Shown: one piece after another, positions 7,087-62,416 of the stretch
How the letters are laid out: every line of letters starts with the position of its first letter
Numbering within the stretch: position 1 is the stretch's first letter
Source: a virus
Lineage: Duplodnaviria > Heunggongvirae > Uroviricota > Caudoviricetes
Direction: 5' to 3' (one strand)
IMG/VR virus record: IMGVR_UViG_2791355477_000007
Length of the DNA: 64,000 nucleotides
Notes under the pieces: model-generated
The model's input: the letters and a program-made list of their open reading frames with translations, nothing else
What the model was told of the DNA's origin: nothing
The model's database searches: none
Made by a program: the position numbers and the translations under genes

Positions 7087-7100
7087 TTGACTATAGTAAA
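7087..7100. promoter_or_regulatory. palindromic operator/-35 motif (consensus TTGACTATAGTCAA)
   Basis: TTGACTATAGTAAA; TGnTATGAT -10 downstream. Confidence 0.75.
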
Positions 7101-7149
7101 TAAAATGTTATGATTTATTTATAAAACACATAATTAAGGACGTGAAAAA

Positions 7150-7485
7150 ATGACTGAGCAAGAATATCGTGATTTTAGAATGTGGGAAACAAAGTTAAAA
7201 GTAAATGAACAGGCGAAAAAAGAATTGAAAACATCAGAAGGAGCAAGCTTTTCAGAAAATAAATTATTCTTAAATGCTAATCGAAATTGGGTCGCTACTT
7301 CCATGCCTATTCTATACTCCAATGACGAAATTCATTTTGTTGTATCACCACTAATAACTAATGGTACAGATGAAGGTGCCAGTGGTTTAGAAGCTATTAT
7401 TTTCACAAAGAAACAACTTATGAAGACCTTTGATATTCAATTAGAAACTAAAAATACAAATAACGAAATGGAGATAAGAAAATGA
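7150..7485 (+). CDS. hypothetical protein, paralog of 7763-8056
   Basis: shared W..T.MPI.Y.ND motif. Confidence 0.75.
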   Translation: MTEQEYRDFRMWETKLKVNEQAKKELKTSEGASFSENKLFLNANRNWVATSMPILYSNDEIHFVVSPLITNGTDEGASGLEAIIFTKKQLMKTFDIQLETKNTNNEMEIRK

Positions 7486-7766
7486 AGAATTATTTAGTTG
7501 CATTGCGTGTAGGTGGAGATATGGGTCAGCCTGATATCTCATATAATGATTTTCAAATTATTAAAGCAGAAAATAAATTAGATGCTTGTAAAAGATATAA
7601 CCAAATTAATAATTGCTCCTATTTTTATGGAGAAGCTTTAGCTTTAGTTAGAGATAAAGTGTCTGTAGAAAAAGCATTAACAAGAAGAATGAATATTAAA
7701 ATGTGGTTCAACCTATTTTCTACAGGTGCTTTAGAAGGCGTTGATAAAAAGGAGTCTCAAAAATGA
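7482..7766 (+). CDS. hypothetical protein
   Basis: overlapping operon ORF. Confidence 0.7.
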   Translation: MKNYLVALRVGGDMGQPDISYNDFQIIKAENKLDACKRYNQINNCSYFYGEALALVRDKVSVEKALTRRMNIKMWFNLFSTGALEGVDKKESQK

Positions 7767-8056
7767 CAGAATTAGAATTTGATAGAGTGCAAGCGCTCCA
7801 TACACCATTGTATTTAGCTAAAACATTTGTAGATACTTTAGAGGAAAAAGAGCTATTAGAATTAGCAGAGTCATTTATGTTAAATAGAAAACAAAACACT
7901 TGGTATCTTACAGCAATGCCTATTCCCTATCCTAACGACACGACTACTTATTTAGTACAAGCAGTCGATAAGGATAATCGAATCATCCCTGTTTCAGCTA
8001 TGGTTCTATCTAAAGAATATTTCATGAAGTTATTTTCGTTAAAAAAGGAGTTTTAA
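7763..8056 (+). CDS. hypothetical protein, paralog of 7150-7485
   Basis: shared motif. Confidence 0.75.
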   Translation: MTELEFDRVQALHTPLYLAKTFVDTLEEKELLELAESFMLNRKQNTWYLTAMPIPYPNDTTTYLVQAVDKDNRIIPVSAMVLSKEYFMKLFSLKKEF

Positions 8057-8059
8057 CGC

Positions 8060-8884
8060 ATGAAAAACAGATTTCAAGTGCAAATCTCAGCAATATATCA
8101 TTTCTTTAAAAGTACAAAAGCAACAAACAAAAAGGCGATAGAAACATTTATGTATCATGATTGGATGAAGTGTGACGATTTAGAAAAACGAGACGATACG
8201 GGTGTATATTTTACAATGGGTGCAATTGAACCAAATACAAAAAAATCTATTATTCTTGATTCCATTATTGTTGTATCTGAATCCGAATTTGAAAGTTTGT
8301 TTTACGGTGCAGAAAAACTTACTATCTCTCCTTCTGCCTATATTGAATCGTTGGAGAATTGGTTAATATTTGTAAGTAATTGTTATCAACATAACTTTGA
8401 TAGATTCTTAGAGTTACAGAAAACTGAACACTATGGAGCATTCGCAGAATATGAACAAATCGGATTTTTATCCCTTGCTTCTCTTGTTAAATCTATATCT
8501 AAATTGAAATACACTTCTTTTTATATAAAAGACTCTATGCCATTTGAGATTATGGCGAGAAGAACAAAATATGATTTTTACGAATTCGAAAATACAGAAG
8601 AAGAAAAATACATCTCTCATTTAGAAGAACTACTCATTTATGTTTGTCACTTCTATCAGAAAAATCATGACCACTTCTTCCAGATGTATATAGACCAGAA
8701 AAACAAATACTACTACCGATTAGCTACCGTTCAAGGCACTCGTTATCGTTCTGAAGTTAAAAATATTAGCGAGTTGTGTGATGAATGTTTTATCGTTACT
8801 TTTATTGAAGAAAAAGAACATGAAATTCTATTGAAAAAACTCACAGAGAATCAGACAAAAAGAAATAAGAAAGAAAATGCATAG
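8060..8884 (+). CDS. hypothetical protein with internal repeat
   Basis: YI..LE..LI.V...YQ.N.D.F occurs twice. Confidence 0.75.
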   Translation: MKNRFQVQISAIYHFFKSTKATNKKAIETFMYHDWMKCDDLEKRDDTGVYFTMGAIEPNTKKSIILDSIIVVSESEFESLFYGAEKLTISPSAYIESLENWLIFVSNCYQHNFDRFLELQKTEHYGAFAEYEQIGFLSLASLVKSISKLKYTSFYIKDSMPFEIMARRTKYDFYEFENTEEEKYISHLEELLIYVCHFYQKNHDHFFQMYIDQKNKYYYRLATVQGTRYRSEVKNISELCDECFIVTFIEEKEHEILLKKLTENQTKRNKKENA

Positions 8885-8907
8885 AGGGAAAACTCCCTCT
8901 ATTTTTT
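8881..8907 (+). terminator. intrinsic terminator
   Basis: ATAGAGGGA/TCCCTCTAT plus T run. Confidence 0.7.
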
Positions 8908-8926
8908 ATGAGTTCATTTTATTTTA

Positions 8927-8940
8927 TTGACTATAGTTAA
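8927..8940. promoter_or_regulatory. palindromic operator/-35 motif
   Basis: TTGACTATAGTTAA upstream of recD2. Confidence 0.75.
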
Positions 8941-8980
8941 TGAAATAAGTTAAAATGTATGTATACAAATATAAAGAAAT

Positions 8981-11596
8981 ATGTACGAATTAGTTAGAAA
9001 AGGAGAGGTGAAACACTTGTCTGTATTTAATTTAGAAAATTATCTTAGTGAACCAAAGTCAGCTTTAGATGATTTCGAAGTCGATGATGAAATTACCATT
9101 GTCACCCTTCCACTTGATACAATTTACGAAAATTCAGAATCGGGTTATCGTGTTTATGCTTGTCAAAGTGAAGAAGGTCAGTCATTTAAAATGAACGGAA
9201 AATTCATCATGCCACTTAATCCGAATATTCACTATCAGGTAAATGGAGTTATTGTATTTTATAAAGGTGAAAAACAAGTAAAAATGAATCGGGTTTCACC
9301 TATAAAGCCAATTGGGAAAAGAGGCATCGTTCGTTACTTACGAACTTTAAAAGGTCTGAAAAATAGAGCAGAGGATATTTATAGCGTTTTCGGTGATAAA
9401 TCTATTGATATGTTGATAGAAAACCCTGAAGAAGTTGTTAGTCGAATTAAAGGGATTGGTAAAAAAAGTGTGGAAGCTTGGAAAAAACAACTTGAAAGTC
9501 TAACAAATTCACAGTATACATTGTCTTATTTATTAGATATTGGTTTGTCGTTTGAGCAATCAAAAAGCTTATACAGCGAATATAAAGATGATATCATTCG
9601 TTTAATTTCAGAAAATCCTTATCTTTTAGCAAGGAAAATTCCAGGATACGGATTTAAAAAATGTGACAAAATCGCTAAAGATATTCACTTTGACATGCTA
9701 AGTGATGAACGTATTCAAGAAGGGATTATTCATGGACTTGATGAGGCAACAAAAGAAGGTCACTGCTTCTTACATAAAGATGATTTAATTGAAAAAACAA
9801 GAGAGATATTGAGAGTTACACTTCCTTCTAAAGAAAGCGAACGTTTATTAAAAGAAACAATAGATGAAAAAATCTCTTATTACTTTGGTACAATCCAAGT
9901 TATGATTCCAAGGGATGAACTAAACGCTTATTATGAACGTTGGAAATCAGCTCGTTATAAAAATGAAAAAGAAAAGTGTTTATATCCTTTATTTGATATT
10001 CCATATGAACTGATTGAGGAAGAAATTGAGAATTTGCTTACTTTTGAGAGAATTGTCATAGAACAAGACCGTGTGTATTTAGAATACATCCATAGTGCTG
10101 AAGTCCGTGTGGCAGAAGAGCTTTATCGTCTTTCAGATACGCAAGAATGGAAGAATCAAATAGATATTAAGGCTGAATTAGACAAGTATCTATCTGCTGA
10201 AGGTATTGAATTAGAAGAAAAACAAGAAGAAGCCATTTTAACATTCACGAAAAGACGTGGTGGTTTTTATGTACTAAATGGTTCCGCAGGTTGTGGGAAA
10301 ACATTCGTTTTAAAAATCATATTGAAAATCTTCAATATTGTATGTAAATCAAATGGCATTACTCCCTACCTTCAATTATTGGCTCCAACTGGAAAGGCCG
10401 CTAAAGTTGCTAAGAAATCAACAAATGAAATATGTCTTACTGTACATAGAGGATTAGAATTCCGTGGAGGAGAAGGATTTACCTTCAATGCATCCAATCC
10501 TTTACCAGGGAACATTATCGTTTTAGATGAAAGCTCGTTTTTAGATGTGGAATTATCTAAGGATTTACTACAAGCAATTAAACGTGGTGCTACAGTTATC
10601 TGGATGGGCGATATTAAACAGTTGCCGAGTATTGGTCCAGGCAGTGTTCTAAAAGATATCATTGAAAGTGGAGTTCTTCCAGTTGTTACATTAGATGTAG
10701 TAAAGCGTCAAGGAAAGCAATCAGGTATTGCAAAAAACGCAAAAAAAATCATTGATGGTGAAATGATTGAAACTTGCGAGGATACAAAGGATTCCTATGC
10801 TGTATTTCGTGATTCACCTAAGGTTATTTTGAAGAACATTCTCGAATCTGTTAAACGTGTCCTTACGTTCCCTGATTATACACTGGATGATATCCAAGTT
10901 CTATCACCTCAAAAAACAGGTATTTTAGGAACATATATGATTAACTTGTTAATGCAAGAAGCTTTTAACGAAACTGAATCAACTGTTACTTCTTTAAATA
11001 AAGAATTCACTGTAGATAATGAACGTTTTTCTCTGTACTTTAAAGAAGGCGATAAAGTCATTAACATGCGTAATAACGACTTAAAAGTTTGGTACAAAAA
11101 AAGTTACGTTTCAACTGAAGACAGTAACGTTCTTCTTACCCAATATACACCGAATAAAGATGCTAAAGGTGGCATTGCAAACGGTGAAACTGGTGTAATT
11201 GAAGCAATCCGAAAAATCAAAGAACCAGTTGATAATAAGGAGACTATAAAAGGTGCTGTTCCTGCAAAAACGAAGGAAATCATTCGTATAATTGTAAAAT
11301 ACGATGATGGTTATATCTTCTATGATAACAAGGAAAAAGAAGATTTAGACCATGCATACGCATTCTCTATTCACAAGTCTCAGGGTTCACAATGGAGAGC
11401 TTGTATCATGCCAATTTCTATGCTTCACTACAGAATGCTTGATAATAGCTTGTTCTATACTGGATTTACACGAGCTCAAGAATTTAATGTGGTAATTGGT
11501 GAAGAAAGAGCGATTAAACACGCAATTAAAACGTACAAGTCAAGAGAGCGTAACACCACTCTAAAAGAGCGTTTAGAAAGTTTATATCTCATTTAA
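8981..11596 (+). CDS. recD2: ATP-dependent RecD-like SF1B helicase (start may be TTG 9017)
   Basis: N-terminal HhH region, GSAGCGKT, DESS, GDIKQLPSIGPG, HKSQGSQW, YTGFTRA. Confidence 0.93.
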   Translation: MYELVRKGEVKHLSVFNLENYLSEPKSALDDFEVDDEITIVTLPLDTIYENSESGYRVYACQSEEGQSFKMNGKFIMPLNPNIHYQVNGVIVFYKGEKQVKMNRVSPIKPIGKRGIVRYLRTLKGLKNRAEDIYSVFGDKSIDMLIENPEEVVSRIKGIGKKSVEAWKKQLESLTNSQYTLSYLLDIGLSFEQSKSLYSEYKDDIIRLISENPYLLARKIPGYGFKKCDKIAKDIHFDMLSDERIQEGIIHGLDEATKEGHCFLHKDDLIEKTREILRVTLPSKESERLLKETIDEKISYYFGTIQVMIPRDELNAYYERWKSARYKNEKEKCLYPLFDIPYELIEEEIENLLTFERIVIEQDRVYLEYIHSAEVRVAEELYRLSDTQEWKNQIDIKAELDKYLSAEGIELEEKQEEAILTFTKRRGGFYVLNGSAGCGKTFVLKIILKIFNIVCKSNGITPYLQLLAPTGKAAKVAKKSTNEICLTVHRGLEFRGGEGFTFNASNPLPGNIIVLDESSFLDVELSKDLLQAIKRGATVIWMGDIKQLPSIGPGSVLKDIIESGVLPVVTLDVVKRQGKQSGIAKNAKKIIDGEMIETCEDTKDSYAVFRDSPKVILKNILESVKRVLTFPDYTLDDIQVLSPQKTGILGTYMINLLMQEAFNETESTVTSLNKEFTVDNERFSLYFKEGDKVINMRNNDLKVWYKKSYVSTEDSNVLLTQYTPNKDAKGGIANGETGVIEAIRKIKEPVDNKETIKGAVPAKTKEIIRIIVKYDDGYIFYDNKEKEDLDHAYAFSIHKSQGSQWRACIMPISMLHYRMLDNSLFYTGFTRAQEFNVVIGEERAIKHAIKTYKSRERNTTLKERLESLYLI

Positions 11597-11656
11597 TAAA
11601 AAAGTCGCAAAGAATATCAATTTCTCTGCGACTTTTTCTATGTTGTGTTCATAACT

Positions 11657-11947
11657 TTACATGCGAGGTAACTGCTCCCAATTTATTTCGGCAACCTCTA
11701 CTCCCCACTGCTTTGCTAATTGTTTTTCATGTTCAACAGCTTCTAATGGAAAAATCGTTTTGTTATTTTTTATATGAAATAAACAAAATTCATCTTTATC
11801 TTGGACAATGACTTCTTTCATTTTTTGTCTATTTCGATAGCAAAAACGAATAATTTCCTCATCATTTCTCAAAATAACAGGAGGTAATTGTACATCCTCC
11901 CCTTCTATTTCTGTTGTTAAGAAACCTTTATATGTATCTGTCGTCAT
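11657..11947 (-). CDS. hypothetical protein
   Basis: ORF, protein-like composition. Confidence 0.65.
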   Translation of the reverse strand: MTTDTYKGFLTTEIEGEDVQLPPVILRNDEEIIRFCYRNRQKMKEVIVQDKDEFCLFHIKNNKTIFPLEAVEHEKQLAKQWGVEVAEINWEQLPRM

Positions 11948-12151
11948 CTATTACATCCCCAATCCATACCATTCAATATTTACCTCAAGTTTATCATAAA
12001 ACTAACTGTGTAGTTATCATTCTTTTTATTAATGTTTTAAGAAATCGAAGAAATACATTATTTTATTTATACATAAAAATAAATCATATATCTTAGTCAC
12101 TCCCCACTTCGTTATTAAGTAAAATATTTTTTATTTACTTTATCTTTTATA

Positions 12152-12165
12152 TAGACTATAGTAAA
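12152..12165. promoter_or_regulatory. palindromic operator motif (degenerate)
   Basis: TAGACTATAGTAAA upstream of the ligA operon. Confidence 0.6.
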
Positions 12166-12204
12166 TGTTATAGTGAGTTATTGACAATAAAAGGTGGTGA
12201 CAGC

Positions 12205-12489
12205 ATGAATAAAGAAATGCATATCATATTAAAGGACGGAAAACCATGGTCTGGTGCTTCTCAAGAAACATTTGCTAAGGTATATTATGATGAGGAAAAA
12301 GCTATTCAAATTGCAAAAAGTGCTTGTACTGCTGAAGCAAATCGTTTTTATGAATATGGAGAAGGTTATTATCAAAATGAAGAGTTATCTTTAACTGAAC
12401 GCAGAAAATTAGCTAAAGATTTAGCAGATAAAGAATGGATTAAACGATGGAAAGTAAAACCAATGATATTAAAAGAGGAGCAAAACTAA
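12205..12489 (+). CDS. hypothetical protein
   Basis: AGGTGG RBS before ATG 12205. Confidence 0.7.
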   Translation: MNKEMHIILKDGKPWSGASQETFAKVYYDEEKAIQIAKSACTAEANRFYEYGEGYYQNEELSLTERRKLAKDLADKEWIKRWKVKPMILKEEQN

Positions 12490-15221: not shown

Positions 15222-15229
15222 GATTATTT

Positions 15230-15351: not shown

Positions 15352-15365
15352 TTGACTTTAGTTAA
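15352..15365. promoter_or_regulatory. palindromic operator/-35 motif
   Basis: TTGACTTTAGTTAA followed by TATAAT. Confidence 0.75.
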
Positions 15366-16970: not shown

Positions 16971-17014
16971 TGTCACACCTCGTAAATTATTTTTTACTAT
17001 TTCATAGTATATCA

Positions 17015-17028
17015 TTGACTTTAGTTAA
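17015..17028. promoter_or_regulatory. palindromic operator/-35 motif between divergent genes
   Basis: TTGACTTTAGTTAA. Confidence 0.75.
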
Positions 17029-18415: not shown

Positions 18416-18425
18416 ATTGTGACCA

Positions 18426-25108: not shown

Positions 25109-25122
25109 TTGACTATTGTCAA
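25109..25122. promoter_or_regulatory. palindromic operator/-35 motif between divergent genes
   Basis: TTGACTATTGTCAA. Confidence 0.75.
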
Positions 25123-27103: not shown

Positions 27104-27117
27104 TTGACTATAGTAAA
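27104..27117. promoter_or_regulatory. palindromic operator/-35 motif
   Basis: TTGACTATAGTAAA. Confidence 0.75.
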
Positions 27118-33896: not shown

Positions 33897-33960
33897 TCAC
33901 TCACCTCAATCAAAATAGTTACCGAACTTCATTTATCTATAGTTAATATTATTTCATTCA

Positions 33961-33974
33961 TTTACTATAGTCAA
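33961..33974. promoter_or_regulatory. palindromic operator/-35 motif between divergent genes
   Basis: TTTACTATAGTCAA. Confidence 0.7.
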
Positions 33975-38260: not shown

Positions 38261-38274
38261 TTGACTATAGTATA
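38261..38274. promoter_or_regulatory. palindromic operator/-35 motif between divergent genes
   Basis: TTGACTATAGTATA. Confidence 0.7.
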
Positions 38275-39978: not shown

Positions 39979-41253
39979 TTATAGAGCAATTCCTTTTTCT
40001 AATTTCTCAAATTCCCTTTTGTATCGTTTCCAACGTTTGTCAATAAAAACATGGTCTTCCTTTGATAAAAGGCTTCCTTTACAAAATCTTTTTTCTACAA
40101 ACCCTGGAACTTCATCATTGAAATGATAAAAGAAGAATTCACCATGCTCTAACAAATATAGTTTAGGAATTTCATTACCCATTACAAAATATTCTTTGAA
40201 TACATTTATATCCTGAGGATTTAGACCTGGCATTAAAATGAAATTTTTAAAATTAGCAATTAAGTAATTCTCATAATCAGAAACATTCATTTTTAGTAAT
40301 GACAGACTTTGGATATCGGCAATAATTGAAACATCCATTGCATAATTAATTGAAAAGAAATCCTCAAAGCCATTCATCCAAGCATTTAAATCTTTAACGT
40401 ACAAATTATTGTTATTCTTTCCATTATTTCGTTTGTTACAAATACATGCTTGTTTATATACACCAGATATTAATTGTGGGAGCATTCTCGCAATATCCCT
40501 ATCTAATGAATACCCTTCCAAATTAAAGATAACAACTTCTTTGTTTTTGATGTGTTTAACAAAATCAATTTCCTCAAACTCACCTTTTTCCTTCGTATTA
40601 AAAATGTGAGAAACTTTAGCGTTTGATGTTAAGCGAGACAACATCATTCTCAATCCACTATTATGCTCAAATGCTTTACTTCCTTCTTCAAAATATTTTC
40701 CAATATACAATACAGTAAGACTATCAGCATCCTCTAATGAGCAATATAAATCAAATAACTCTTTTCCTTTTCTATTTGTATTGTTAACAAAATCACTTAA
40801 TTCTTGTAATGTAATATGATTATCAAAAATTTTGTTTAGAATTTTGATAGATGCTTCTAATATACGTTCATGTGTGTCTAAGAAAAATTTAGGGGTATCT
40901 CTCCCTTCCCATTTCACTATTTTTTTCATTAGATTAATAACGAATTCTTCTTCTCCCCTTAATGGGTTAAATTTCACATTTTTAAGATAGGGACTAAAAT
41001 AAATCACGTTTCTTCGATTACTTTTTGCTAATGTATAAGCAACCTTTGCTACATCCCCTTGGTTATCAAAGACTGTGACACCATGATTCTTTTGTTCTAT
41101 ATCTTGTTTTATCATTGGTATGTGAAACATCCCTGATATTCCAGTACCTACACTGCCTACAATCAAGGTGTTAAGTCCTCTACTCGATTCTTTTAAAAAG
41201 ACTTTCTTTTTCTTCTCCTTATCAGTTCCAACAAACAAACTATTATTTTTCAT
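39979..41253 (-). CDS. VirD4/TraG-like coupling-protein homolog with degenerate Walker motifs
   Basis: NTLIVGSVGTGIS, GVTVFD..GD.A, FNPL.G, ADIQSLS. Confidence 0.7.
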   Translation of the reverse strand: MKNNSLFVGTDKEKKKKVFLKESSRGLNTLIVGSVGTGISGMFHIPMIKQDIEQKNHGVTVFDNQGDVAKVAYTLAKSNRRNVIYFSPYLKNVKFNPLRGEEEFVINLMKKIVKWEGRDTPKFFLDTHERILEASIKILNKIFDNHITLQELSDFVNNTNRKGKELFDLYCSLEDADSLTVLYIGKYFEEGSKAFEHNSGLRMMLSRLTSNAKVSHIFNTKEKGEFEEIDFVKHIKNKEVVIFNLEGYSLDRDIARMLPQLISGVYKQACICNKRNNGKNNNNLYVKDLNAWMNGFEDFFSINYAMDVSIIADIQSLSLLKMNVSDYENYLIANFKNFILMPGLNPQDINVFKEYFVMGNEIPKLYLLEHGEFFFYHFNDEVPGFVEKRFCKGSLLSKEDHVFIDKRWKRYKREFEKLEKGIAL

Positions 41254-41275: not shown

Positions 41276-41289
41276 TTGACTTTAGTTAA
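41276..41289. promoter_or_regulatory. palindromic operator motif
   Basis: TTGACTTTAGTTAA upstream of the VirD4-like gene. Confidence 0.7.
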
Positions 41290-43234: not shown

Positions 43235-43248
43235 TTGACTATAGTTTT
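43235..43248. promoter_or_regulatory. palindromic operator/-35 motif between divergent genes
   Basis: TTGACTATAGTTTT. Confidence 0.65.
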
Positions 43249-44882: not shown

Positions 44883-44896
44883 TTGACAATAGTCAA
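44883..44896. promoter_or_regulatory. palindromic operator/-35 motif
   Basis: TTGACAATAGTCAA. Confidence 0.75.
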
Positions 44897-46785: not shown

Positions 46786-46799
46786 TTGACTATAGTAAA
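46786..46799. promoter_or_regulatory. palindromic operator/-35 motif
   Basis: TTGACTATAGTAAA, TATAAT at 46810. Confidence 0.75.
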
Positions 46800-49789: not shown

Positions 49790-49831
49790 CCTCGCCTCGT
49801 AAAATATTATTTACTTAAGTATAACATATCA

Positions 49832-49845
49832 TTGACTATAGTTAA
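49832..49845. promoter_or_regulatory. palindromic operator/-35 motif between divergent genes
   Basis: TTGACTATAGTTAA, TATAAT at 49855. Confidence 0.75.
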
Positions 49846-52131: not shown

Positions 52132-52346
52132 CATTTGTTTTTCTCTTTGCAGTAAGATATAATATTGATTAATTGGTAAACATCCGATATGGAGATAGGA
52201 GTATAAACTTATATACTTCTTACAAAAACACCGTACTGTAATACGGTGTTTTTTATTTTATATAATCTCAAAAAACAATAATAATTGTCTATTTAAGTAA
52301 TATATTTTTTACTTATTTTATATATTTTATTTACAATAGTTTAATT

Positions 52347-53463: not shown

Positions 53464-54960
53464 ATGACAAAACCAAAGAAAGATTGTTTTATTGTAGAAC
53501 TAAAATTAATGTTGGATACATGGCAAACGGATATTCTATGTAAACGTTTTGAAATTGCCCGTAAACTCTATAACACCACATTATCTTACGCAACGAAACA
53601 ATATAGGCTCATGAAAGAATCAAAAGCTTATAGAAAACAAATACGTTGCTATCAAAAGGCAAAAAAAGCAAATCACCCAAAAGAATGGAAAGAAATATCA
53701 AAAGAATTAGATAGTATTCGTCAATCTTTTGGATTAAGTGAATATCAACTTCACGCTTATATAAAAAAACACCAACATAATTATAAAAAACACATAGATA
53801 GCTATACCTCTCAAAAAATTGCTTCTACCGTTTGGAAAGCGATGGAAGATGTGATATTTAAAGGGGCAAAAGCACACTTTAAATCATACGGAATGCTTCA
53901 TTCGGTAGAAGGGAAATCGAATAAAACGGGTATTCGATTTAAAGAAAACAGGGTCTATTGGAATGGATTACTCCTTCCTGTTCATTTTCGCAAGAATGAT
54001 TTATTTATAAAAGAATCTCTCGCCCTTCATACGATAAAATATTGTCGTTTTGTCAAAAAAGTAATTCGTGGAAAAGTTACGTTTTATGTACAGCTTGTTA
54101 TGGGTGGCATTCCCCCTGCAAAGAGAATCAATAAAACAGGAGCATTTCGACATTCCTACCAAAAGAAAAAGCGAGTAGGTATAGATATTGGTCCTTCTAC
54201 CATTGCCATTGTTTCGGAAGAAACCGTTTCTATCCAAAAAATTGCTCCTGATGTTCCTTTATTTGAGAATCAAAAAAGACGTTTATTACGCAAGTTAGAT
54301 AGAAGCCGTAGACGTACAAATCCAAATAACTTTAACACAAATGGCACAATAAAACGTGGCATCAAGCTTCATTGGATATGTAGTAAAAACTATCAAAAAA
54401 CAAAAAAATTATTAAATGAGTTGTACAGAAAAAAAGCTTCTTATATCAAAGAAAAACATGGTGCATTAGCAAATCACATTTTATCTTTAGGTGATGAAGT
54501 GTATATTGAAACCATGCATTTTAAAGGATTAGCAAAACGTACAAAAGAGACAAAAACAAATCAACAAGGCAGATTCCAATCCAAAAAGCGTTTTGGGAAA
54601 AGTATTGGGAATCATGCCCCTGCCATGTTAGTGAACATCATCAATCAAAAATTGAAGTATGGTAAACAAGAGATACAAAAAGTAAATACGATAACTTTTA
54701 GAGCCAGTCAATATAATCATGTAACAAATAGCTATGAAAAGAAAAAACTCCATCAACGATGGAGTCAAATCGGAAATCATCTCGTACAACGAGATTTATA
54801 TAGTGCTTTTTTATTAATGAATAGTGATGCAAATTTAAAACAAACCAATCAAGAACGCTGTATCGAAACATTCGATACCTTTGTACATCTACATAATCAA
54901 CACATAGAAGCATTACAACAAACAAAGAAAAAATACCCACTCAGCATGGGTATCCTATAA
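53464..54960 (+). CDS. tnpB: RNA-guided endonuclease TnpB
   Basis: RuvC motifs GIDIG, VYIETM, QRDLYSA. Confidence 0.88.
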   Translation: MTKPKKDCFIVELKLMLDTWQTDILCKRFEIARKLYNTTLSYATKQYRLMKESKAYRKQIRCYQKAKKANHPKEWKEISKELDSIRQSFGLSEYQLHAYIKKHQHNYKKHIDSYTSQKIASTVWKAMEDVIFKGAKAHFKSYGMLHSVEGKSNKTGIRFKENRVYWNGLLLPVHFRKNDLFIKESLALHTIKYCRFVKKVIRGKVTFYVQLVMGGIPPAKRINKTGAFRHSYQKKKRVGIDIGPSTIAIVSEETVSIQKIAPDVPLFENQKRRLLRKLDRSRRRTNPNNFNTNGTIKRGIKLHWICSKNYQKTKKLLNELYRKKASYIKEKHGALANHILSLGDEVYIETMHFKGLAKRTKETKTNQQGRFQSKKRFGKSIGNHAPAMLVNIINQKLKYGKQEIQKVNTITFRASQYNHVTNSYEKKKLHQRWSQIGNHLVQRDLYSAFLLMNSDANLKQTNQERCIETFDTFVHLHNQHIEALQQTKKKYPLSMGIL

Positions 54961-55328: not shown

Positions 55329-55583
55329 ATGATGCATAAAGTAACTTGTACATGTGGACAGCATAGTATAGAGGCAAATAAAAACTCTCTAAATAAAGAA
55401 CTAATAGATGCAGGATGGGGTGTAATCCCTTCTAATCGAGGTACATTTATTTATATTTGCCCTTCTTGCTATCAAAGAGCAAGACAGTTAATCAAAGAGT
55501 TTCATCAAATAACACAAGATACATACATTAGTATCTCCTCTATCATTCGCAAAATAGAGGAAGAAAATGAAACCAAGCAGTAA
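55329..55583 (+). CDS. small zinc-finger protein
   Basis: CTCG ... CPSC. Confidence 0.7.
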   Translation: MMHKVTCTCGQHSIEANKNSLNKELIDAGWGVIPSNRGTFIYICPSCYQRARQLIKEFHQITQDTYISISSIIRKIEEENETKQ

Positions 55584-55602
55584 TTAGAAAGGATGAATAG
55601 AA

Positions 55603-56406
55603 ATGGGTTGGCGTTTTGAAGTATTATTACTACCAAAAACAATTAAAAATGAAGACTTAATTCAATCAACGCATCAAATACTTAAGGATGAACCAAAGAT
55701 AATAATGGACAGCCATGTTTTAATGGTAGCCCCACCCTCACCTGATTTTTATTTCAAAAAAATCTCATTAGATTCTATTGGAAATTATGAATCTCCTGTT
55801 TTTACACCCAGGGAATTCGCACTGAAATTATCAAACGTAATTAGAAATGAGGATTTTATCATTGCCAATTATTGCGACGGAACTGCCCAAGGGTTAATCT
55901 CGCATTTTAGAAATGGATGCCTTGTGCAAAAAATTGAAAGTCCAGAACTCGATAAATTAGAAATAGGACGACAGTTATTAACTGATACCTTACACTTCCC
56001 TGTTTCTGAATCTATCCTATCATCAATTGATTCTTATTTTTCTTTTCTGCATGAGAGAAATCCCTATTCTCTTATCTCTTATGCTCACCTGCATTTCTCT
56101 TCTGTATCCGAAAAAAGACCGATGCGTAGAGCATTGTATGAACAAGTACAAGCGTTGATTCAAAATCCTAATGTAACGGATGAAGAATTAGGTACATTGA
56201 AAGGTTCCCACAGTTTCCCTCCTTCTATCGTTCGACCTTATTATCAACGTTACATAATGGAGTCAAATAAAAATATAGCGTTAGAAAAAATGTATCTGTT
56301 TACGAATGGATTCGAGGGTGACGCAACATTAAAAGATGCTCCCACCTATCTATCACCTAATAATTATTTCCAATTAACATCGGATTATAGAAATCTTACA
56401 ATTTAA
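55603..56406 (+). CDS. hypothetical protein, paralog of 57051-57836
   Basis: shared ERNPY...SYAHL.F and TNGF...ATL.D.P..L.P..YF. Confidence 0.8.
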   Translation: MGWRFEVLLLPKTIKNEDLIQSTHQILKDEPKIIMDSHVLMVAPPSPDFYFKKISLDSIGNYESPVFTPREFALKLSNVIRNEDFIIANYCDGTAQGLISHFRNGCLVQKIESPELDKLEIGRQLLTDTLHFPVSESILSSIDSYFSFLHERNPYSLISYAHLHFSSVSEKRPMRRALYEQVQALIQNPNVTDEELGTLKGSHSFPPSIVRPYYQRYIMESNKNIALEKMYLFTNGFEGDATLKDAPTYLSPNNYFQLTSDYRNLTI

Positions 56407-56435
56407 TACACACGAGCAAACCTCCTTTAATTTTA

Positions 56436-56449
56436 TTGACTATAGTTAA
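56436..56449. promoter_or_regulatory. palindromic operator/-35 motif
   Basis: TTGACT-17 nt-TATAAT. Confidence 0.8.
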
Positions 56450-56497
56450 TAATTTATTTATAATATAACTTATAAATACACATCGAAGGTTTTTCTT

Positions 56498-57049
56498 GTG
56501 TTCAGAGTACATATCTTAAATCAAAACTTACTGGTTACAGGCGGTATCGCAGTGGGAAAGACTTTTTTCTTAAATGAATCACTTATGGATTTATTAACAA
56601 AATGCGAAAACACCCTACTATTAACACCTAATATAAATGAATTTAAAACACCTATTACAACATTTAATGGAAGAACAATTTCTTCTACTAAAATAAATAA
56701 TGATATTGATGGTTCTTTATTTCAAATCGTTGAAATTAATCCATTTTCACAATCATTAGATGAAGTCAAACATTCATTCATGGAATTTGTAAGCAGTTTT
56801 GAAACTATAATTCAAAGTGGAATAAAAACGGTAATGATTGATGAAGGAATGCAACTACTAAATGAAGTACCTTTCCCCTCATTTATAAAGTTTGTTGAAC
56901 GATTAAATGAAAAAGGTGTACGAGTAATTTTCACCTCTCAATTAGAGCTTCATCGACTTCCTATCGACCAGTTCATGCAAGTAGATAAATTGTTTCCTTG
57001 TGTATTAAAACTGAATCATCAATATAAACCATTAGAAACCGCATCATAA
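56498..57049 (+). CDS. small P-loop ATPase
   Basis: GGIAVGKT Walker A, VMIDEG Walker B, IFTSQ. Confidence 0.75.
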   Translation: MFRVHILNQNLLVTGGIAVGKTFFLNESLMDLLTKCENTLLLTPNINEFKTPITTFNGRTISSTKINNDIDGSLFQIVEINPFSQSLDEVKHSFMEFVSSFETIIQSGIKTVMIDEGMQLLNEVPFPSFIKFVERLNEKGVRVIFTSQLELHRLPIDQFMQVDKLFPCVLKLNHQYKPLETAS

Positions 57050-57050
57050 A

Positions 57051-57836
57051 ATGAAGGAGGATGAATATATGAGTAGACAATATTACGGAATCATGGTTCA
57101 TGGTTCTATCTCAAACAAAGTATTAGCAGAAAAAACATTAGAAATTTTAAAGGATAACGAATTAAAAGTTAACTACGGAAGTCAGTGCTTAGTCACGCTA
57201 CCTGTAGATGAAAAATATAATTTCAAGGTTATCAATTACGGAAGCATTTTGAATCACGAGATTACACCATTTGCTGATGAGACATTAGCAAAGGAATTAT
57301 CAGAAAGAATTCCTTTTCAGGATTTCATAGTCTTCCATTTCCATAGCGTAACGGATACAGGCTATTTTAGACACTATATGAATGGTGTTCTGATTGAAGA
57401 AAAAGCTGATAAAATCGAAGGAGATAATTTTATCTGTGCTCAAAATCTATTCAAGCAGGTTTTTGGTATCCCAAGATATAAAAATCTGATGCAAATCATT
57501 GAGAAGTATTTCAAAGTGGCATTAGAACGTAACCCGTATTTACAAGGTGCCTCTTATGCTCATCTGTTATTCGCACAAGAGGATGCATTTTGGGGAAATA
57601 AAGAATTATGTGATGCAATTCAAGAACAATTAAAGCATCCAACGAAGCAAAAGGAAAATCACTCTTCACTTCAATATTATTTAAATAGATATGAAAATGA
57701 GAAAGTAGATAATAGAGTAATGTATTACTTATTAACTAACGGTTTTTATCGAAGTGCTACCTTATTAGATTCTCCACATCAGTTAAAACCTGAAGAATAC
57801 TTTGAATTTCATCAAAGTGTTAAAAAAATAGCATAA
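57051..57836 (+). CDS. hypothetical protein, paralog of 55603-56406
   Basis: shared motifs. Confidence 0.8.
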   Translation: MKEDEYMSRQYYGIMVHGSISNKVLAEKTLEILKDNELKVNYGSQCLVTLPVDEKYNFKVINYGSILNHEITPFADETLAKELSERIPFQDFIVFHFHSVTDTGYFRHYMNGVLIEEKADKIEGDNFICAQNLFKQVFGIPRYKNLMQIIEKYFKVALERNPYLQGASYAHLLFAQEDAFWGNKELCDAIQEQLKHPTKQKENHSSLQYYLNRYENEKVDNRVMYYLLTNGFYRSATLLDSPHQLKPEEYFEFHQSVKKIA

Positions 57837-57875
57837 CAGAATGAAAGCAATACCTAATAGGTGTTGCTTTTTTCA

Positions 57876-57889
57876 TTGACTATAGTTAA
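57876..57889. promoter_or_regulatory. palindromic operator/-35 motif
   Basis: TTGACTATAGTTAA. Confidence 0.75.
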
Positions 57890-57938
57890 TTAAATTGTTA
57901 CTATAATATTATCAACAAAAGGACGGTGAAAGAAGGTT

Positions 57939-58733
57939 ATGAAAGGACTTGTAATTAAGAAACATTGGATAAATCTTATATTAAGCGGTCAAAAAGATTG
58001 GGAAATTCGAGGAAAAAATGCAAAAATCCGAGGAACAATTGCGTTGATTCAAAGTGGTTCAGGCATGGTATTTGGAACTGTCGATTTAGTAGATTGCATT
58101 CCCTTAACGAAAGAAGCCTTTAATAGCAATCATGAACATCACAAAATCCCTGTGACTGGAGATACAGAACCACCTTATAAAAAAACTCACGCATGGGTCT
58201 TTAGAAATCCTGTTATCTTTCCAAAACCGATTCCTTACTCTCACCCTCTCGGTGCAGTGATATGGATAAATATTAAAGAGAATATAGAAGTAAAAGATGA
58301 TGATATTAGGGATTGGTTCAACATCTCAACATCATCTAACTTATTACATTCAGGCGATGTTTCATTCAATAATCTTTTACGCTTATATAAATCAGCACTC
58401 ATGAAGTATTACAACATTCATACATCTACAAATATAACGAACTTTTTTGAACAGGTGAAAAAATTAGAGATGCCTCGTTCAGCAGAATTATGTACGGAAT
58501 GGATGTTAGACAAGGGGCTTTCTCACTTAGAGACTATCAAATCAAAACTACCTATTTCTAAAGAGGATATCCCTTATTTAGATTATGATGCTTGGGCTCT
58601 TCAAGAGACATTAAAGCATGAAGACTCCCCATATGCAGATGATTTATGCTCTACATTAATAGACATCCTTAGTACCCTTTCTACAAGTACATTAAATAGA
58701 AAGTTCCGAAACGAAAAAGAGTGGAGTGAATGA
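57939..58733 (+). CDS. ASCH domain protein with C-terminal extension
   Basis: W..LILSGQKDWEIRG, G.V.LVDC, HP.GAVIW. Confidence 0.82.
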   Translation: MKGLVIKKHWINLILSGQKDWEIRGKNAKIRGTIALIQSGSGMVFGTVDLVDCIPLTKEAFNSNHEHHKIPVTGDTEPPYKKTHAWVFRNPVIFPKPIPYSHPLGAVIWINIKENIEVKDDDIRDWFNISTSSNLLHSGDVSFNNLLRLYKSALMKYYNIHTSTNITNFFEQVKKLEMPRSAELCTEWMLDKGLSHLETIKSKLPISKEDIPYLDYDAWALQETLKHEDSPYADDLCSTLIDILSTLSTSTLNRKFRNEKEWSE

Positions 58734-59130
58734 AATGACAAAAGAATATCAGATAAAAGAAGGCATGATTATTTACGCAATTATACCTTCATGCAGAGGT
58801 GAAAAAGTTGAACCCTGTAAAGTAAGGAAGTCACTGAATAACTCTATAGAATGGAACTTAAAATGCTTATCTGAGGAAGAGAAGTATTTTAGCATCGGGT
58901 TTGATACGAATTATATTGGAAAAATCTACTCCTTTGACAAAATAGAAGCAGAAACACACTTGAAAGAAATGAAGGAGAAAAGCAATAAAGCTTTCCAAAA
59001 TGCCCTCTCCTCAAAAGAAGAGATTTTAAAAAGATTATTTTCAGGATGGGCATATGATATGACGGAAGGTGAAGAAGTTCAGATTATGGAAAGACGAATT
59101 GAAGAAGAGTTTGGAGTAAAAGTGCGATGA
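58726..59130 (+). CDS. hypothetical protein
   Basis: operon ORF. Confidence 0.7.
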   Translation: MNEMTKEYQIKEGMIIYAIIPSCRGEKVEPCKVRKSLNNSIEWNLKCLSEEEKYFSIGFDTNYIGKIYSFDKIEAETHLKEMKEKSNKAFQNALSSKEEILKRLFSGWAYDMTEGEEVQIMERRIEEEFGVKVR

Positions 59131-59639
59131 ACTACTCTCTTAATTCGAAGACTACATTAGGTTTTAAATGGTCAGAAAAAGAGAATGATTGGATGATTTA
59201 TTTTCCAAGGTCAGGAAGTGGTTCTTATCTACATTCTCAACTGCTTGAAAGACGTTTCTTTCTCTCTTTATTACAGGAATTGTTAAATAGAGATTATGAC
59301 CTCTCTACTTTTTTGTTCCGAGTTCATACAAACGAATTTTCTGAATCACATCCGAGAAAACGAACAAGCCATTTTAGAAAGGAAAATGTTCTGGCCGTTT
59401 ACTGGAACTACCAGACAAACGATTGGATGATTCGCTATCCTGATAAGTCAGATGGCTCTCTCATTGCATTTGACTTAATCGGTAATGATTACTTCAAGAA
59501 TGTTTTAAAAGAGCTTGAAAACCGAAAATATGACGTTAAAACACTATGTATTTACGTTGAAAGAAGAGAAATGGATTCAACGACCCAAAACAATATAAGC
59601 ACTTGGATAAAAAGACGTTTATCAACCGCTTATAAATAA
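59127..59639 (+). CDS. hypothetical protein with two internal repeats
   Basis: W....NDWMI..P....GS ... L.EL..R.YD..T twice. Confidence 0.75.
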   Translation: MNYSLNSKTTLGFKWSEKENDWMIYFPRSGSGSYLHSQLLERRFFLSLLQELLNRDYDLSTFLFRVHTNEFSESHPRKRTSHFRKENVLAVYWNYQTNDWMIRYPDKSDGSLIAFDLIGNDYFKNVLKELENRKYDVKTLCIYVERREMDSTTQNNISTWIKRRLSTAYK

Positions 59640-59653
59640 AAGGAGGATACAAC

Positions 59654-59848
59654 ATGTTACTGGTAGAGTTCTTTCAAAATACACATGACCTAAGACGTGA
59701 AGTTCAGAAACAGTTCAAAGAACGTGGTTTTACACTTCCTGAAAAATATTTCGTTATGAATGAAGCATTAGGATATGCTCCTAATATAAAAGAACTAACA
59801 AATGATGAGATACATAGAGTTTTAACATTACTGAAGGAAAAGTATTAG
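59654..59848 (+). CDS. small hypothetical protein
   Basis: AGGAGG RBS. Confidence 0.7.
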   Translation: MLLVEFFQNTHDLRREVQKQFKERGFTLPEKYFVMNEALGYAPNIKELTNDEIHRVLTLLKEKY

Positions 59849-60011
59849 ACAGTTTACGGAGAAATTTATGTCAAAAAAACGTGAAATATTTAGATTATTA
59901 GAAGAAGATTGTGTAAACCCTACAAGTGAAGAAATCATAAAGAAGTATATTAATAATTTGATAAGAGAAAATGAAGAATTAAAAAAGAAAAAACGAAAGG
60001 TTGTGTCATAA

Positions 60012-60218
60012 ATGAACGAAGCAATTGACGGAAAGAAAATGTATGAGAATTTAATAAAGATAGGATATAAAAGTGTTGGTGTACACGATGATAATGAAAT
60101 TCTTTCTAAAGAATTTTCTGAAGGAACTTTCATTCTTTTCGCATTTAAGAACGATGAGTGTATTGGAACAATGATTCTATCACAAGAGCAGTTACATGCG
60201 ATGCAGAATCTTAAATAA
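60012..60218 (+). CDS. small hypothetical protein
   Basis: operon ORF. Confidence 0.6.
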   Translation: MNEAIDGKKMYENLIKIGYKSVGVHDDNEILSKEFSEGTFILFAFKNDECIGTMILSQEQLHAMQNLK

Positions 60219-60221
60219 GAA

Positions 60222-60497
60222 ATGAATAATAAAATCAAGTTTATTCATTTCTTAGTAACCATGATTTTAGGTGGGGGCGTGGGGATATCAGGAATTTTTG
60301 CTCTTGTAATTCCTTTTGCGGAGAATAAATCCATGTTTAGTTTATTCGTATTAGCATTCCCTGTTCTCTCTCTTATTTATTTTATTTACTTAATACGTTC
60401 CAATACAAAAAATATAGGCAGTTTATTCACTCATGTAGGAGTATTTATTGCATCTGTTATATTGATACCTTGGCTTGTACTCTATCTTACAAGTTAG
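60222..60497 (+). CDS. three-TM membrane protein
   Basis: hydrophobic segments. Confidence 0.65.
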   Translation: MNNKIKFIHFLVTMILGGGVGISGIFALVIPFAENKSMFSLFVLAFPVLSLIYFIYLIRSNTKNIGSLFTHVGVFIASVILIPWLVLYLTS

Positions 60498-60617
60498 CGA
60501 AGAAAAGCACCTATTGGTGCTTTTTTCTTTTTATGTGGTAACTATTTCAAAAAAACAATCTATCTTTCGTTGATTCCCCATATAATAAGTATAACTGTAC
60601 AGAATGGAGTTGATAGT

Positions 60618-60899
60618 ATGGATGGATTTTTCGAGCTAATTCTTCTTGGTCTTATTTTATTTATATTGATTCTTTCTTTCTCTGCTTTTATCGAACAAAA
60701 ATATCCTGAAAAACAAGGTCTAAAATTTGTGCTACCTACAATTCTTATTGCTATGTCCTGCTTAACCTTTTATATCTCTGCATTCCTTTTTGACGGTTGG
60801 TTTATCATAGGAGTAAGTGTTTTATGTACAACTGTTTTTATAAGCTCCACTATTGGTTTTATTGCATCTGTATTTATACATAATAAAAAAGAGCAGTAA
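60618..60899 (+). CDS. YesK-like membrane protein
   Basis: GGAG RBS, three TM segments, KYPEK and DGW motifs. Confidence 0.55.
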   Translation: MDGFFELILLGLILFILILSFSAFIEQKYPEKQGLKFVLPTILIAMSCLTFYISAFLFDGWFIIGVSVLCTTVFISSTIGFIASVFIHNKKEQ

Positions 60900-60911
60900 T
60901 TTACTGTTCTT

Positions 60912-61256
60912 TTAATCAAATCTATCATTTTCTCCTAATACCCATTTCAAAGCTGAAATTTGCGAGCTATTTTGTAGCAGTTGGGAACGAAAGGCTTCCC
61001 TATCTATTTCCCTTTTCTTGTAAGAATCTCGTATAATATCTTCGGTGGTATCCAAATCCTTAATCTTATCTCTTATCCACTGCTCTGTTTTCATTTTTAA
61101 AACGGAATTAAATGATATTATCATAGATTCATTTTCCATAACGACAGTCTGGAAAACATCTTTAGGAATTCGTTTTTCATAAAAAGCATTTTTATAGTTT
61201 TCAATCGTTTTAAAACAAGCTCTCATTTCGTCCTGTATTTCGTGAACTGTTTTCAT
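60912..61256 (-). CDS. hypothetical protein with internal repeat
   Basis: MKT...I.D occurs twice; LKWVLGE end. Confidence 0.7.
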   Translation of the reverse strand: MKTVHEIQDEMRACFKTIENYKNAFYEKRIPKDVFQTVVMENESMIISFNSVLKMKTEQWIRDKIKDLDTTEDIIRDSYKKREIDREAFRSQLLQNSSQISALKWVLGENDRFD

Positions 61257-61268
61257 GTATTAGCTCCT

Positions 61269-61559
61269 TTATTTTCTTTTGTATCGTTTGTACCAATCCT
61301 TATATGAATAATCATCACAATAAGACCATTTTTGCCCACTATTTAATAATGATTTTTCTTCAGCTCCTTTATCTTTAACATATGTATTGTAATAATAGGT
61401 AACTTTCCATTCACAAATGTCATATTGGTCATATAGTTTTTTATATGCACTTCCGTTTGCAATCTCACCTTTAAACTTTCTAACCTTTCGATTGGCAAAT
61501 TTTCTTTCTGCTTTTTGATTATCTTTTACACATGGTACTTTTTTATAACTTCTGCTCAT
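61269..61559 (-). CDS. small basic protein (MSRSYKK...ANRKVR type)
   Basis: RBS, highly basic and aromatic. Confidence 0.7.
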   Translation of the reverse strand: MSRSYKKVPCVKDNQKAERKFANRKVRKFKGEIANGSAYKKLYDQYDICEWKVTYYYNTYVKDKGAEEKSLLNSGQKWSYCDDYSYKDWYKRYKRK

Positions 61560-61686
61560 ACATATCACATCCCTTTCTTAGGGACCATTATTTGGTCCAC
61601 CTAATGGACTGTGAAATGAGGAATTCTCACTCTTTGTTGATGCATCTTTCTCATATACACCACATCCTTTCAGTCTCTCCATACGC

Positions 61687-62367
61687 CTATTCAATCGTAA
61701 CAAAGTGTTTAAATACCCTTTGTCTTTCTACATTATCTAATCCATAGGCATATTTATCCGTAAACTCTTTCCAGTTTGTACTTTCATTCAAAGTATCCAT
61801 TTTTACTTTCAGAACTTTTTCTAATTCTTTTTTATTGATAGAAGCCTCATATGTTTTCCCTTCAAACGGAAGGATAACTTCTAAGTTTTCTAATACTGGA
61901 TTCTTTTTGAATAGTCTTGTTGTTTCAATCACAAATAATTTATCAATCTTGTCTCCTGTACTCCAATACTCTTTATATGTTTCTTCTTTTAAATCTTTCA
62001 TTGAAGAGTTTTCAGAAATGACCGCTTGATATGAATCATAATAGGTTAAGGTAGCATGAGTATCAGCAATATCAATTTTTTTAATGTATTCCCCACCCAT
62101 CATTAAATTCACTTCATTTGTAAACTTATCTTTTTCCAACTTTGGCTTTTCTTTCTGCTTATTTTCGTCAGATGCATTACCATCTTTATTTTCTTCAGTT
62201 TTATCTTTTTTCTTATTCTGAGAATCTAAAACTTTTTGCAATTGCTCTTGTGTTAATTTTGTAGTTTGTGTTTTTTGTTCTTCTTCATTGTTTTCACAAC
62301 CTACAGAAATCGCTAACACACCTATACTTAGAATCCCTAATAGACACCTTTTTGCAGTTTTATTCAC
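61687..62367 (-). CDS. lipoprotein
   Basis: signal peptide with lipobox ISVG-C. Confidence 0.8.
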   Translation of the reverse strand: MNKTAKRCLLGILSIGVLAISVGCENNEEEQKTQTTKLTQEQLQKVLDSQNKKKDKTEENKDGNASDENKQKEKPKLEKDKFTNEVNLMMGGEYIKKIDIADTHATLTYYDSYQAVISENSSMKDLKEETYKEYWSTGDKIDKLFVIETTRLFKKNPVLENLEVILPFEGKTYEASINKKELEKVLKVKMDTLNESTNWKEFTDKYAYGLDNVERQRVFKHFVTIE

Positions 62368-62402
62368 GATATCAACTCCCTTATTTAATTTTATTTATTT
62401 TA

Positions 62403-62416
62403 TCAACTAAAGTCAA
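62403..62416. promoter_or_regulatory. palindromic operator/-35 motif (minus orientation)
   Basis: reverse complement TTGACTTTAGTTGA. Confidence 0.65.

Follow-up and report, generated by a model that had tools for sequence, protein, structure and literature searches.

Why should a large stretch of DNA carry the same short palindrome over and over between its genes, and what protein would read it? The question is raised by a window of 64,000 nucleotides (IMG/VR virus record IMGVR_UViG_2791355477_000007; "the window" below means this whole stretch), in which an earlier note, made from the letters alone, had listed 17 copies of a 14-bp inverted repeat. The window was identified as the reverse complement of positions 39355-103354 of NC_018878.1, the 501,911-bp plasmid BTB_502p of Bacillus thuringiensis 407 (Bt407). 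The genome paper calls this plasmid "entirely novel" and gives it 1.8 copies per cell (PMC3569317, available portion). Its annotation includes dnaE, a primase-like gene, ssb, gyrase, ligA, ParM, VirB4/VirD4-like, relaxase and Tad pilus genes. Since no virion genes were seen in this annotation, we read BTB_502p as a conjugative megaplasmid; a phage collection searched with recD2-ligA gave no match. The matter bears on how hosts afford very large plasmids with hundreds of mostly uncharacterised genes, a private replisome and 33 tRNA genes. On the basis of sequence comparisons, we propose that the palindrome, TTGAC-W4-GTCAA, is very probably a protein operator and that the protein reading it is probably a repressor; with slightly less assurance, we propose that a single dimeric repressor made by the plasmid, most likely the XRE protein BTB_RS31475, would bind it.

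The palindrome was counted on the whole plasmid at increasing tolerance. BTB_502p carries 3, 65 and 43 sites at 0, 1 and 2 mismatches (111 in total), against 0, 0.1 and 2.9 in simulated sequences (10 third-order Markov sequences), and an iterated weight matrix retrieved 148 sites against 7 on the reversed sequence. The conserved motif reads A-TTGACTATAGTCAA-T with T and A runs outside. Only 6 of the 148 matrix sites lie within long open reading frames (ORFs), so that nearly all are intergenic. Among gaps of at least 60 bp, a site is carried by 36/74 divergent, 74/290 co-directional and 2/53 convergent ones. The density is 8-20 sites per 50 kb round the entire circle. To our knowledge, the motif matches no CIRCE, LexA, cre, Fur, PlcR or Spo0A consensus. 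Our literature search, for which motifs in figures and most subscription journals were out of reach, found no description of the motif, its core or the regulon on these plasmids.

The motif is locked to promoters. Strict -10 hexamers peak 17 bp past the left TTGACT (40 cases in Bt407 against 2-16 at other spacers), and the same spacer was counted 63 times in the Jeotgalibacillus and 81 times in the Clostridium perfringens relative described below. This peak places the centre of the palindrome near -28, over the -35 and half of the spacer. Strict -10 hexamers stand on both sides at 2/148 sites and on neither side at 109/148, so the motif does not serve generally as a promoter in both directions, and at many sites the promoter is weak or placed differently. 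In co-directional gaps the gene-facing arm keeps its G (G3) at 51/66 sites and the other arm the matching C (C12) at 25/66. Starting from one arm only, intergenic TTGACWW continued into GTCAA (at most one mismatch) in 86/173 cases, against 11/197 coding occurrences on BTB_502p and 0/28 on an unrelated Bacillus plasmid. As half of the intergenic TTGACWW continue in this way, the second arm is not an artefact of selecting palindromes; it is also kept where no gene faces it. Changes in the arms were one-sided 180 times and compensated 10 times, which disfavours a DNA hairpin.

Within the window, the 17 listed coordinates all proved right: 10 copies have one mismatch, 5 have two and 2 have three (43235 and 62403), none being perfect. 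At up to three mismatches the window holds 23 matches against a shuffle mean of 6.95, and 23 was reached in 0/100 shuffles. All 17 sites are intergenic by the record's annotation, 9 lying in divergent, 8 in co-directional and 0 in convergent gaps, in agreement with the remark that many copies sit between divergent genes. That none lies inside an ORF holds for good matches but not for weak ones, since 3 of 6 additional three-mismatch matches are intragenic (17954, 41741 and 53008). Three further sites come from the weight matrix: 33933, 52330 and, inside a gene, 17954. TATAAT is present at 56459, as had been said. A -10 was also said to follow the arm often at 16-18 nt: a loose TAnnnT does so at 16/17 sites, a weak test in A+T-rich DNA. 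The plasmid-wide peak at 17 bp is the stronger evidence. Of the targets named at the outset, recD2, Thg1, thymidine kinase (tdk), DUF262/GmrSD and ASCH are confirmed by Pfam and ligA by annotation; the "VirD4-like" label of the gene at 39979-41253 is unconfirmed, this gene having no Pfam match at E 0.001. The putative operator copies and two copies of a second dyad, discussed below, are given here in window coordinates; no strand is assigned except where indicated.

7087..7100, putative operator copy in a divergent gap, heading the 7150-8884 operon
8927..8940, putative operator copy ahead of recD2 (8981-11596)
12152..12165, putative operator copy separating a leftward gene from the ligA operon
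15352..15365, putative operator copy in a divergent gap; TATAAT 18 nt on, ahead of a vWA gene
16982..16997, copy of the second dyad (GTAAA-N6-TTTAC) covering a predicted leftward start, some 32 bp from 17015
17015..17028, putative operator copy in a divergent gap, ahead of the Thg1 operon
25109..25122, putative operator copy in the divergent gap ahead of tdk; flanked on either side, at 17 nt, by a -10-like hexamer (leftward TACAAT, rightward a weak TAGGAT)
27104..27117, putative operator copy in a co-directional gap
33933..33946, weaker putative operator copy, paired with 33961 at 28 bp; absent from the first list
33961..33974, putative operator copy in a divergent gap, its better arm leftward
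38261..38274, putative operator copy in a divergent gap
41276..41289, putative operator copy 23 bp ahead of a leftward 424-aa gene; neither side has a -10 at 16-18 nt
43235..43248, putative operator copy with 3 mismatches in a divergent gap, ahead of the DUF262/GmrSD gene
44883..44896, putative operator copy, left arm TTGACA
46786..46799, putative operator copy followed at 18 nt by TATAAT
49799..49814, copy of the second dyad (GTAAA-N6-TTTAC) ahead of a SocA/Panacea antitoxin gene, some 32 bp from 49832
49832..49845, putative operator copy in a divergent gap; TATAAT 17 nt on
52330..52343, weak putative operator copy that the weight matrix alone detects; TTTACA followed at 17 nt by TACAAT
56436..56464, plus strand, putative operator copy (56436-56449) and full predicted sigma-A promoter TTGACT-17-TATAAT
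57876..57889, putative operator copy ahead of the ASCH gene
62403..62416, putative operator copy with 3 mismatches, its intact arm towards a leftward gene

Is the site confined to plasmids? No site within one mismatch was found in the 5.52-Mb record of Bacillus sp. N5-665, taken as a stand-in for the Bt407 chromosome, and in a complete Aneurinibacillus genome 20/20 sites (at most one mismatch) fall on its plasmid. Bacillus sp. M6-12 has 21 exact TTGAC-W4-GTCAA sites, 19 on a 739-kb contig and 2 on an 80-kb contig that also carries homologs of plasmid genes. Across 400 other genomes of the same order the maximum was 4 exact sites per genome, like the reversed control. One genome stood out with 11 matches to the reversed control, which probably form a repeat family peculiar to it. 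On the unrelated plasmids of B. amyloliquefaciens and Lysinibacillus the motif occurred 0 and 1 times. Counts were at chance level on the chromosomes searched, that of Bt407 not being among them. A motif scan of IMG/VR (43 of its 64 parts) returned 120 stretches, the 80 listed of these being single sites on separate contigs, and no relaxase relative was found in IMG/VR.

Searches with ParM, DnaE and the relaxase recovered a family of plasmids of 127-722 kb. TTGAC-W4-GTCAA occurs 20-207 times on seven related conjugative megaplasmids, from Jeotgalibacillus, Paenibacillus, Brevibacillus, Aneurinibacillus, Bacillus and C. perfringens. The matrix counted 207 sites in Jeotgalibacillus, 140 in Bacillus M6-12, 137 in C. 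perfringens pJFP838A, 81 in Brevibacillus and 71 in P. thiaminolyticus; pattern counts (at most one mismatch) were 34 in P. polymyxa pSC2 and 20 in Aneurinibacillus. The arms TTGAC...GTCAA are kept across the family while the centre varies between TATA, AATA and mixed W4 (W4 in C. perfringens, where the promoter-facing arm is TTGACA in 51/77 cases). Degenerate forms occur in Geobacillus and Clostridioides plasmids. In Clostridioides, 22/68 intergenic TTGAC go on with TATA and the other half is degenerate; the good arm is found in either orientation relative to the -10, so it must be more than a plain -35, and at some promoters it lies in the spacer of a poor -35. The same Clostridioides plasmid (L243-L258, mostly 231-303 kb) carries 25 near-copies of a hairpin CTATCTA-N6-TAGATAG, a dyad set aside as a regulatory site and assigned to a terminator-like family.

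The genes led by the site are also conserved. Eight ortholog groups have an upstream site in 5/5 plasmids, among them ssb, dnaE, ftsH, a LysM-pilus operon and an 82-aa gene that precedes the relaxase; for recD2, recJ, nucS and tmk the count is 4/5. The genes of the relatives are simple ORF calls and the upstream distances are approximate. A survey of 86 genomic and metagenomic relaxase loci gave 33 sites, where the control gave 1; they are concentrated in the closest relatives, and the majority of the distant gut relatives lack a site within 10 kb. The motif marks members of the plasmid family and predicts their promoters. The earlier note's proposal that one element-encoded dimeric regulator would govern dozens of operons is consistent with all the tests that were possible, though they do not prove it. 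The site is restricted to plasmids, tied to promoters and conserved along with the plasmid family, and its palindrome shows no compensatory changes.

Several candidate readers were weighed. A CRP/FNR-type site was rejected: such sites centre near -41.5, the present one near -28, and the CRP-type helix-turn-helix (HTH, PF13545) passed the cut-off on 0/5 plasmids against 14/14 control genomes. The plasmid sigma factor is SigK/SigE-like and unfit for TTGACA/TATAAT promoters. The XerS-like recombinase RS29620, at first the best by presence pattern, was dropped, its catalytic motifs being intact and no site lying close to it; by eye, both tyrosine recombinases keep the catalytic R, K, HxxR, H and Y motifs. 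Two plasmids devoid of RS29620 carry degenerate sites, which was counted against it. A 219-aa XRE was rejected as reader of the main site and assigned to the second dyad. As all these fall away, the source left for the reader is a conserved divergent pair, in which a site separates the relaxase operon, with its 82-aa gene, from the gene of a 317-aa XRE. The XRE gene, BTB_RS31475, lies beyond the window at record 485307-486260; it points away from the relaxase operon and precedes an ATPase gene and pilus genes. Orthologs are present on 11/11 PLSDB records with a full-length relaxase match. We give this conserved XRE about an even chance of being the reader.

The chemistry of a restriction-modification (R-M) controller protein offers a comparison. 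On the OM site of C.Esp1396I, T36 and R46 read GTC, Y37 and its neighbours grip TATA, and R35 reads the outer G (PMC3488213, available portion). When the candidate XRE is aligned with C.BclI, SASY stands against HRTY and R46 is kept. S36, Y37 and R46 are invariant in 37/38 XRE homologs (one not read), and position 35 is never R (37/37), which matches a site keeping GAC-W4-GTC without the outer TG. The candidate is the only HTH protein with the S36/Y37/R46 signature on every plasmid examined; its Clostridioides ortholog has K46, and the site there is half-degenerate. In a model of an XRE ortholog (pLDDT 80) the HTH lies between a helical N-terminal part and a C-terminal part, and is alone in matching known folds; the nearest include C.BclI, C.AhdI, SinR and ClgR, none at E 0.001. 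Among the 70 relaxase loci of at least 4 kb (a count that left out 16 shorter ones), sites were found in 8/8 with both the XRE and the 82-aa gene and in 0/7 with the 82-aa gene only.

In the proposed mechanism, the two HTHs of an XRE dimer would each contact one GTC and hold the W4 centre, in the manner of C.Esp1396I on GAC-TATA-GTC. The dimer, predicted to be centred near -28, would block sigma-A region 4. The site in the promoter region of the XRE gene itself would give negative feedback, and about 150 promoters would be damped to a moderate level in established cells. A plasmid entering a cell devoid of repressor would be expected to show a transient burst of expression, of the kind shown for R388 (PMC3937220), p576 (PMC6294495) and the Esp1396I methylase promoter (PMC2691842). 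A broader version is doubtful: a third or more of the family's promoters might be rebuilt on a C-box-type site, with one relative of the controller proteins acting as a whole-replicon switch, arm strength and position setting activation or repression, and a second XRE acting from 32-33 bp; this would amount to a private transcription dial for replicons of 0.3-0.7 Mb, conserved from Bacilli to Clostridia.

This second XRE is BTB_RS31395 (219 aa), which likely binds a second dyad, GTMAA-N6-TTKAC, found ahead of its own gene in 5/6 plasmids. The exact form GTAAA-N6-TTTAC on BTB_502p lies within 80 bp of the motif in 10/13 cases, six of them at 32-33 bp, against 1/12 in controls. The link is weaker on other plasmids (3/11, 4/14 and 3/35); exact second dyads number 35 on the M6-12 contig, 14 in Brevibacillus and 5 in Geobacillus. 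BTB_RS31395 would co-repress a subset of promoters from 32-33 bp away.

Several observations weigh against a repressor read from this XRE gene. A strict -10 at 17 bp accompanies only 38/148 sites on BTB_502p. The S36/Y37/R46 signature is not diagnostic, being found in other XREs on these plasmids and in one from B. amyloliquefaciens, whose plasmid lacks the motif. In Clostridioides the XRE gene was not preceded by a visible site. Among the relaxase loci of at least 4 kb, the single one with the XRE only has no site above threshold in 12 kb (0/1), and sites occur in 6/54 with neither gene nearby. Several core proteins with no assigned family could also be the reader. Finally, the led operons are expressed in culture, so that repression is at most partial: contigs of RNA sequencing from two studies cover those at 1-26.5 kb, and proteomics of wild-type Bt407 lists the plasmid SSB and TPR proteins (PMC12109265, available portion), their match to plasmid genes being inferred from accession order.

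The RNA contigs give neither transcription starts nor levels, and depth was not used for ranking. Several of them start a little past predicted starts, which is a weak hint only: 17054 and 17063 against 17050, 16986 against 16993 leftward, 12199 against 12187, 7132 against 7122, and 9003-9028 against 8962. One contig passes through the 12152 site. BTB_502p was not in three raw-read RNA runs of 2026, and a Jeotgalibacillus supplement mentions plasmid locus tags 3 times, too few for an expression test. As the regulon is not fully silent in culture, damping by negative feedback fits better than a lock.

Within the repressor reading, the best-placed rival for the role of reader is the 82-aa helical protein or an unassigned core protein, and we consider this possible, at clearly lower probability than the XRE. 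The 82-aa protein (record 484,932-485,180, L010:45933-46181; 76-96 aa in relatives) is highly conserved, belongs to no known family and is encoded ahead of the relaxase in many relatives. The site stands directly ahead of its gene in 5/5 plasmids and 9 more loci, with 59-82% identity among those. Its model is a four-helix bundle with weak HTH-like matches (VIA, best Z 5.4), which are not significant; the best Atlas score was 0.84 and Foldseek gave nothing at E 0.001. The gene, up to 61% identical, is also present in the 7 loci devoid of a site, and one 2.4-kb locus, outside the 70-locus count, has the XRE and a site without the 82-aa gene. The 82-aa protein is possibly a relaxosome helper.

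The same dimeric protein could instead be an activator or promoter licence, binding over the -35, bending the DNA and aiding sigma-A polymerase; plasmid promoters would then function only in the presence of the plasmid protein. This reading is unlikely, and it stays alive because the led genes are not silent in culture. The RNA contigs, the presence of core replication genes in the set, the 109 sites flanked by no strict -10 and the Clostridioides good arm in the spacer of a poor -35 all suit it, and controller proteins are able to activate (PMC2691842, available portion). Against it, the promoter-facing arm is nearer to TTGAC (the G3 and C12 counts above), as if sigma-A read it, in C. perfringens this arm is often TTGACA, and the centre near -28 is the polymerase's own position. 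The spacer is also the optimal 17 bp, which MerR-type activated promoters lack.

The earlier note had offered a nucleoid or partition-protein site as an alternative; a nucleoid-organising or replicon-marking site of the Noc, MatP or parS type, preferring intergenic DNA, is improbable. The very many palindromic copies and their even spread would suit it; the fixed phase to the -10, the near absence from convergent gaps and the ParM system, with no ParB annotated on the plasmid, speak against it, and no centromere-like cluster was seen. Still less probable is a promoter built into the motif and independent of any protein, whether a bidirectional sigma-A promoter, the note's other alternative, or a DNA hairpin. 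Both arms read TTGACT/A and nearly half of the divergent gaps have a site; the rarity of strict -10 hexamers on both sides, the second arm kept where no gene faces it, the one-sided arm changes and a half-degenerate Clostridioides form that cannot pair all contradict it. Reading by a host regulator is hardly credible: FNR and PrfA boxes have a similar 5-4-5 layout and the CtsR repeat is similar to the half-site, but CtsR uses direct repeats, chromosome counts are at chance level and the hosts range over Bacilli and Clostridia.

Some other features of BTB_502p were noted. Its 33 tRNA genes are clustered in one 50-kb stretch (window 1-5450 and record 103,336-106,395), within which a putative operator copy lies at record 103551, about 200 bp ahead of the window start. 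RNA contigs of one study show A>G differences at window 132, 936 and 1224 in this cluster, perhaps from read-through of tRNA modifications. Adjoining the XerS-like recombinase are some 12 degenerate repeats with spacers of 35-40 nt (by eye; L005:18890-19500, record 207,890-208,500), which look like a decayed type I-B CRISPR array; cas6, cas7 and cas3 lie at 435-445 kb, distant from these repeats, with a putative operator upstream of cas6 and of cas3. The plasmid also has a copy of the chromosomal rplU-prp-rpmA-spo0B-obgE operon (L006:4725-7571, record 243,724-246,570), and secA, clpX, ftsH and raiA besides the SigK/SigE-like sigma factor. Two CBASS-like pairs of a SAVED protein and a nucleotidyltransferase (L005:26502-28961 and L005:44835-47256) sit where close motif matches are scarcest. 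A 315-aa core protein (L010:24714-25661, record 463,713-464,660), with 41-56% identity among family members, has the look of another winged-helix nuclease of relaxase type. In the window, an IS605-type TnpB-like gene (53464-54960, weak Pfam match) has no operator copy.

How does the proposed regulon compare with known systems? One of the closest parallels is the KorA/KorB control of IncP-1 plasmids (RK2/RP4), where a plasmid-encoded dimer acts on a short symmetric operator at replication, transfer and maintenance promoters (PMC2665229, available portion). At korAp, trfAp and klaAp a distance of 32-33 bp separates the operators of KorA and KorB, the spacing that the second dyad also keeps from the motif at some promoters. 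The operators of KorA number 7, of sequence GTTTAGCTAAAC, in that account, whereas TTGAC-W4-GTCAA is present about 20-200 times per plasmid, on the -35 itself and in Gram-positive hosts; the candidate here is an XRE protein and partition is ParM-type. Neither KorA (TrfB) nor a ParB-type KorB is found in the BTB_502p annotation, and Pfam on 67 of about 709 plasmid proteins gave one KORA match, below cut-off, on another XRE. The proposed system would work like the Kor regulon but is no member of it.

R-M controller proteins share the core GAC-TATA-GTC, the XRE fold and the equivalents of T/S36, Y37 and R46 (PMC3488213, available portion), and a single symmetric OM site of C.Esp1396I shuts a promoter that is active in a naive host (PMC2691842, available portion), as is proposed here. 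As described there, C proteins are about 80-100 aa long, serve one or two R-M promoters and use R35 on the outer TG, whereas the candidate XRE has 196-360 aa across the family, never has R35, precedes a pilus operon and would control more than 100 promoters. Its gene has neither the double C-box nor a place upstream of or overlapping an endonuclease gene, and A/T runs flank the motif where C-boxes have the outer TG/CA. The candidate XRE resembles the controller proteins without being one.

In R388 (IncW), strong promoters are held by plasmid repressors and overshoot after transfer; six repressors act on that small proteobacterial plasmid, with tight repression measured (PMC3937220, available portion), whereas overshoot is only proposed here. 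Reg576 of the Bacillus plasmid p576 is likewise an autoregulated repressor of a Gram-positive conjugative plasmid with zygotic induction, but it is a ribbon-helix-helix protein on direct TTATCCC repeats at four promoters in 7.9 kb (PMC6294495, available portion); the present motif is an inverted repeat of another sequence. For MrpR of SPbeta, a repeated intergenic element was first computed across a large Bacillus element and later proved to be the site of a master repressor. That reader is a dead tyrosine recombinase, with nine ChAP-seq peaks and a 15-bp motif (PMC10516654, available portion), whereas the recombinases here keep their catalytic motifs. A parS-type centromere clusters near the origin or par genes and has a ParB; here 8-20 sites occur in every 50 kb and partition is by ParM.

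What is new here is the Gram-positive family, the scale, the conservation across two classes and the chemically matched candidate, one short site marking a regulon across little-studied conjugative megaplasmids of soil, gut and pathogenic Bacillota. If the proposal is true, one repressor would set replication, transfer and many uncharacterised genes jointly. Controller-protein DNA chemistry would then be employed outside restriction-modification, and Kor-type global control would extend to Gram-positive megaplasmids with ten to twenty times the known operator number.

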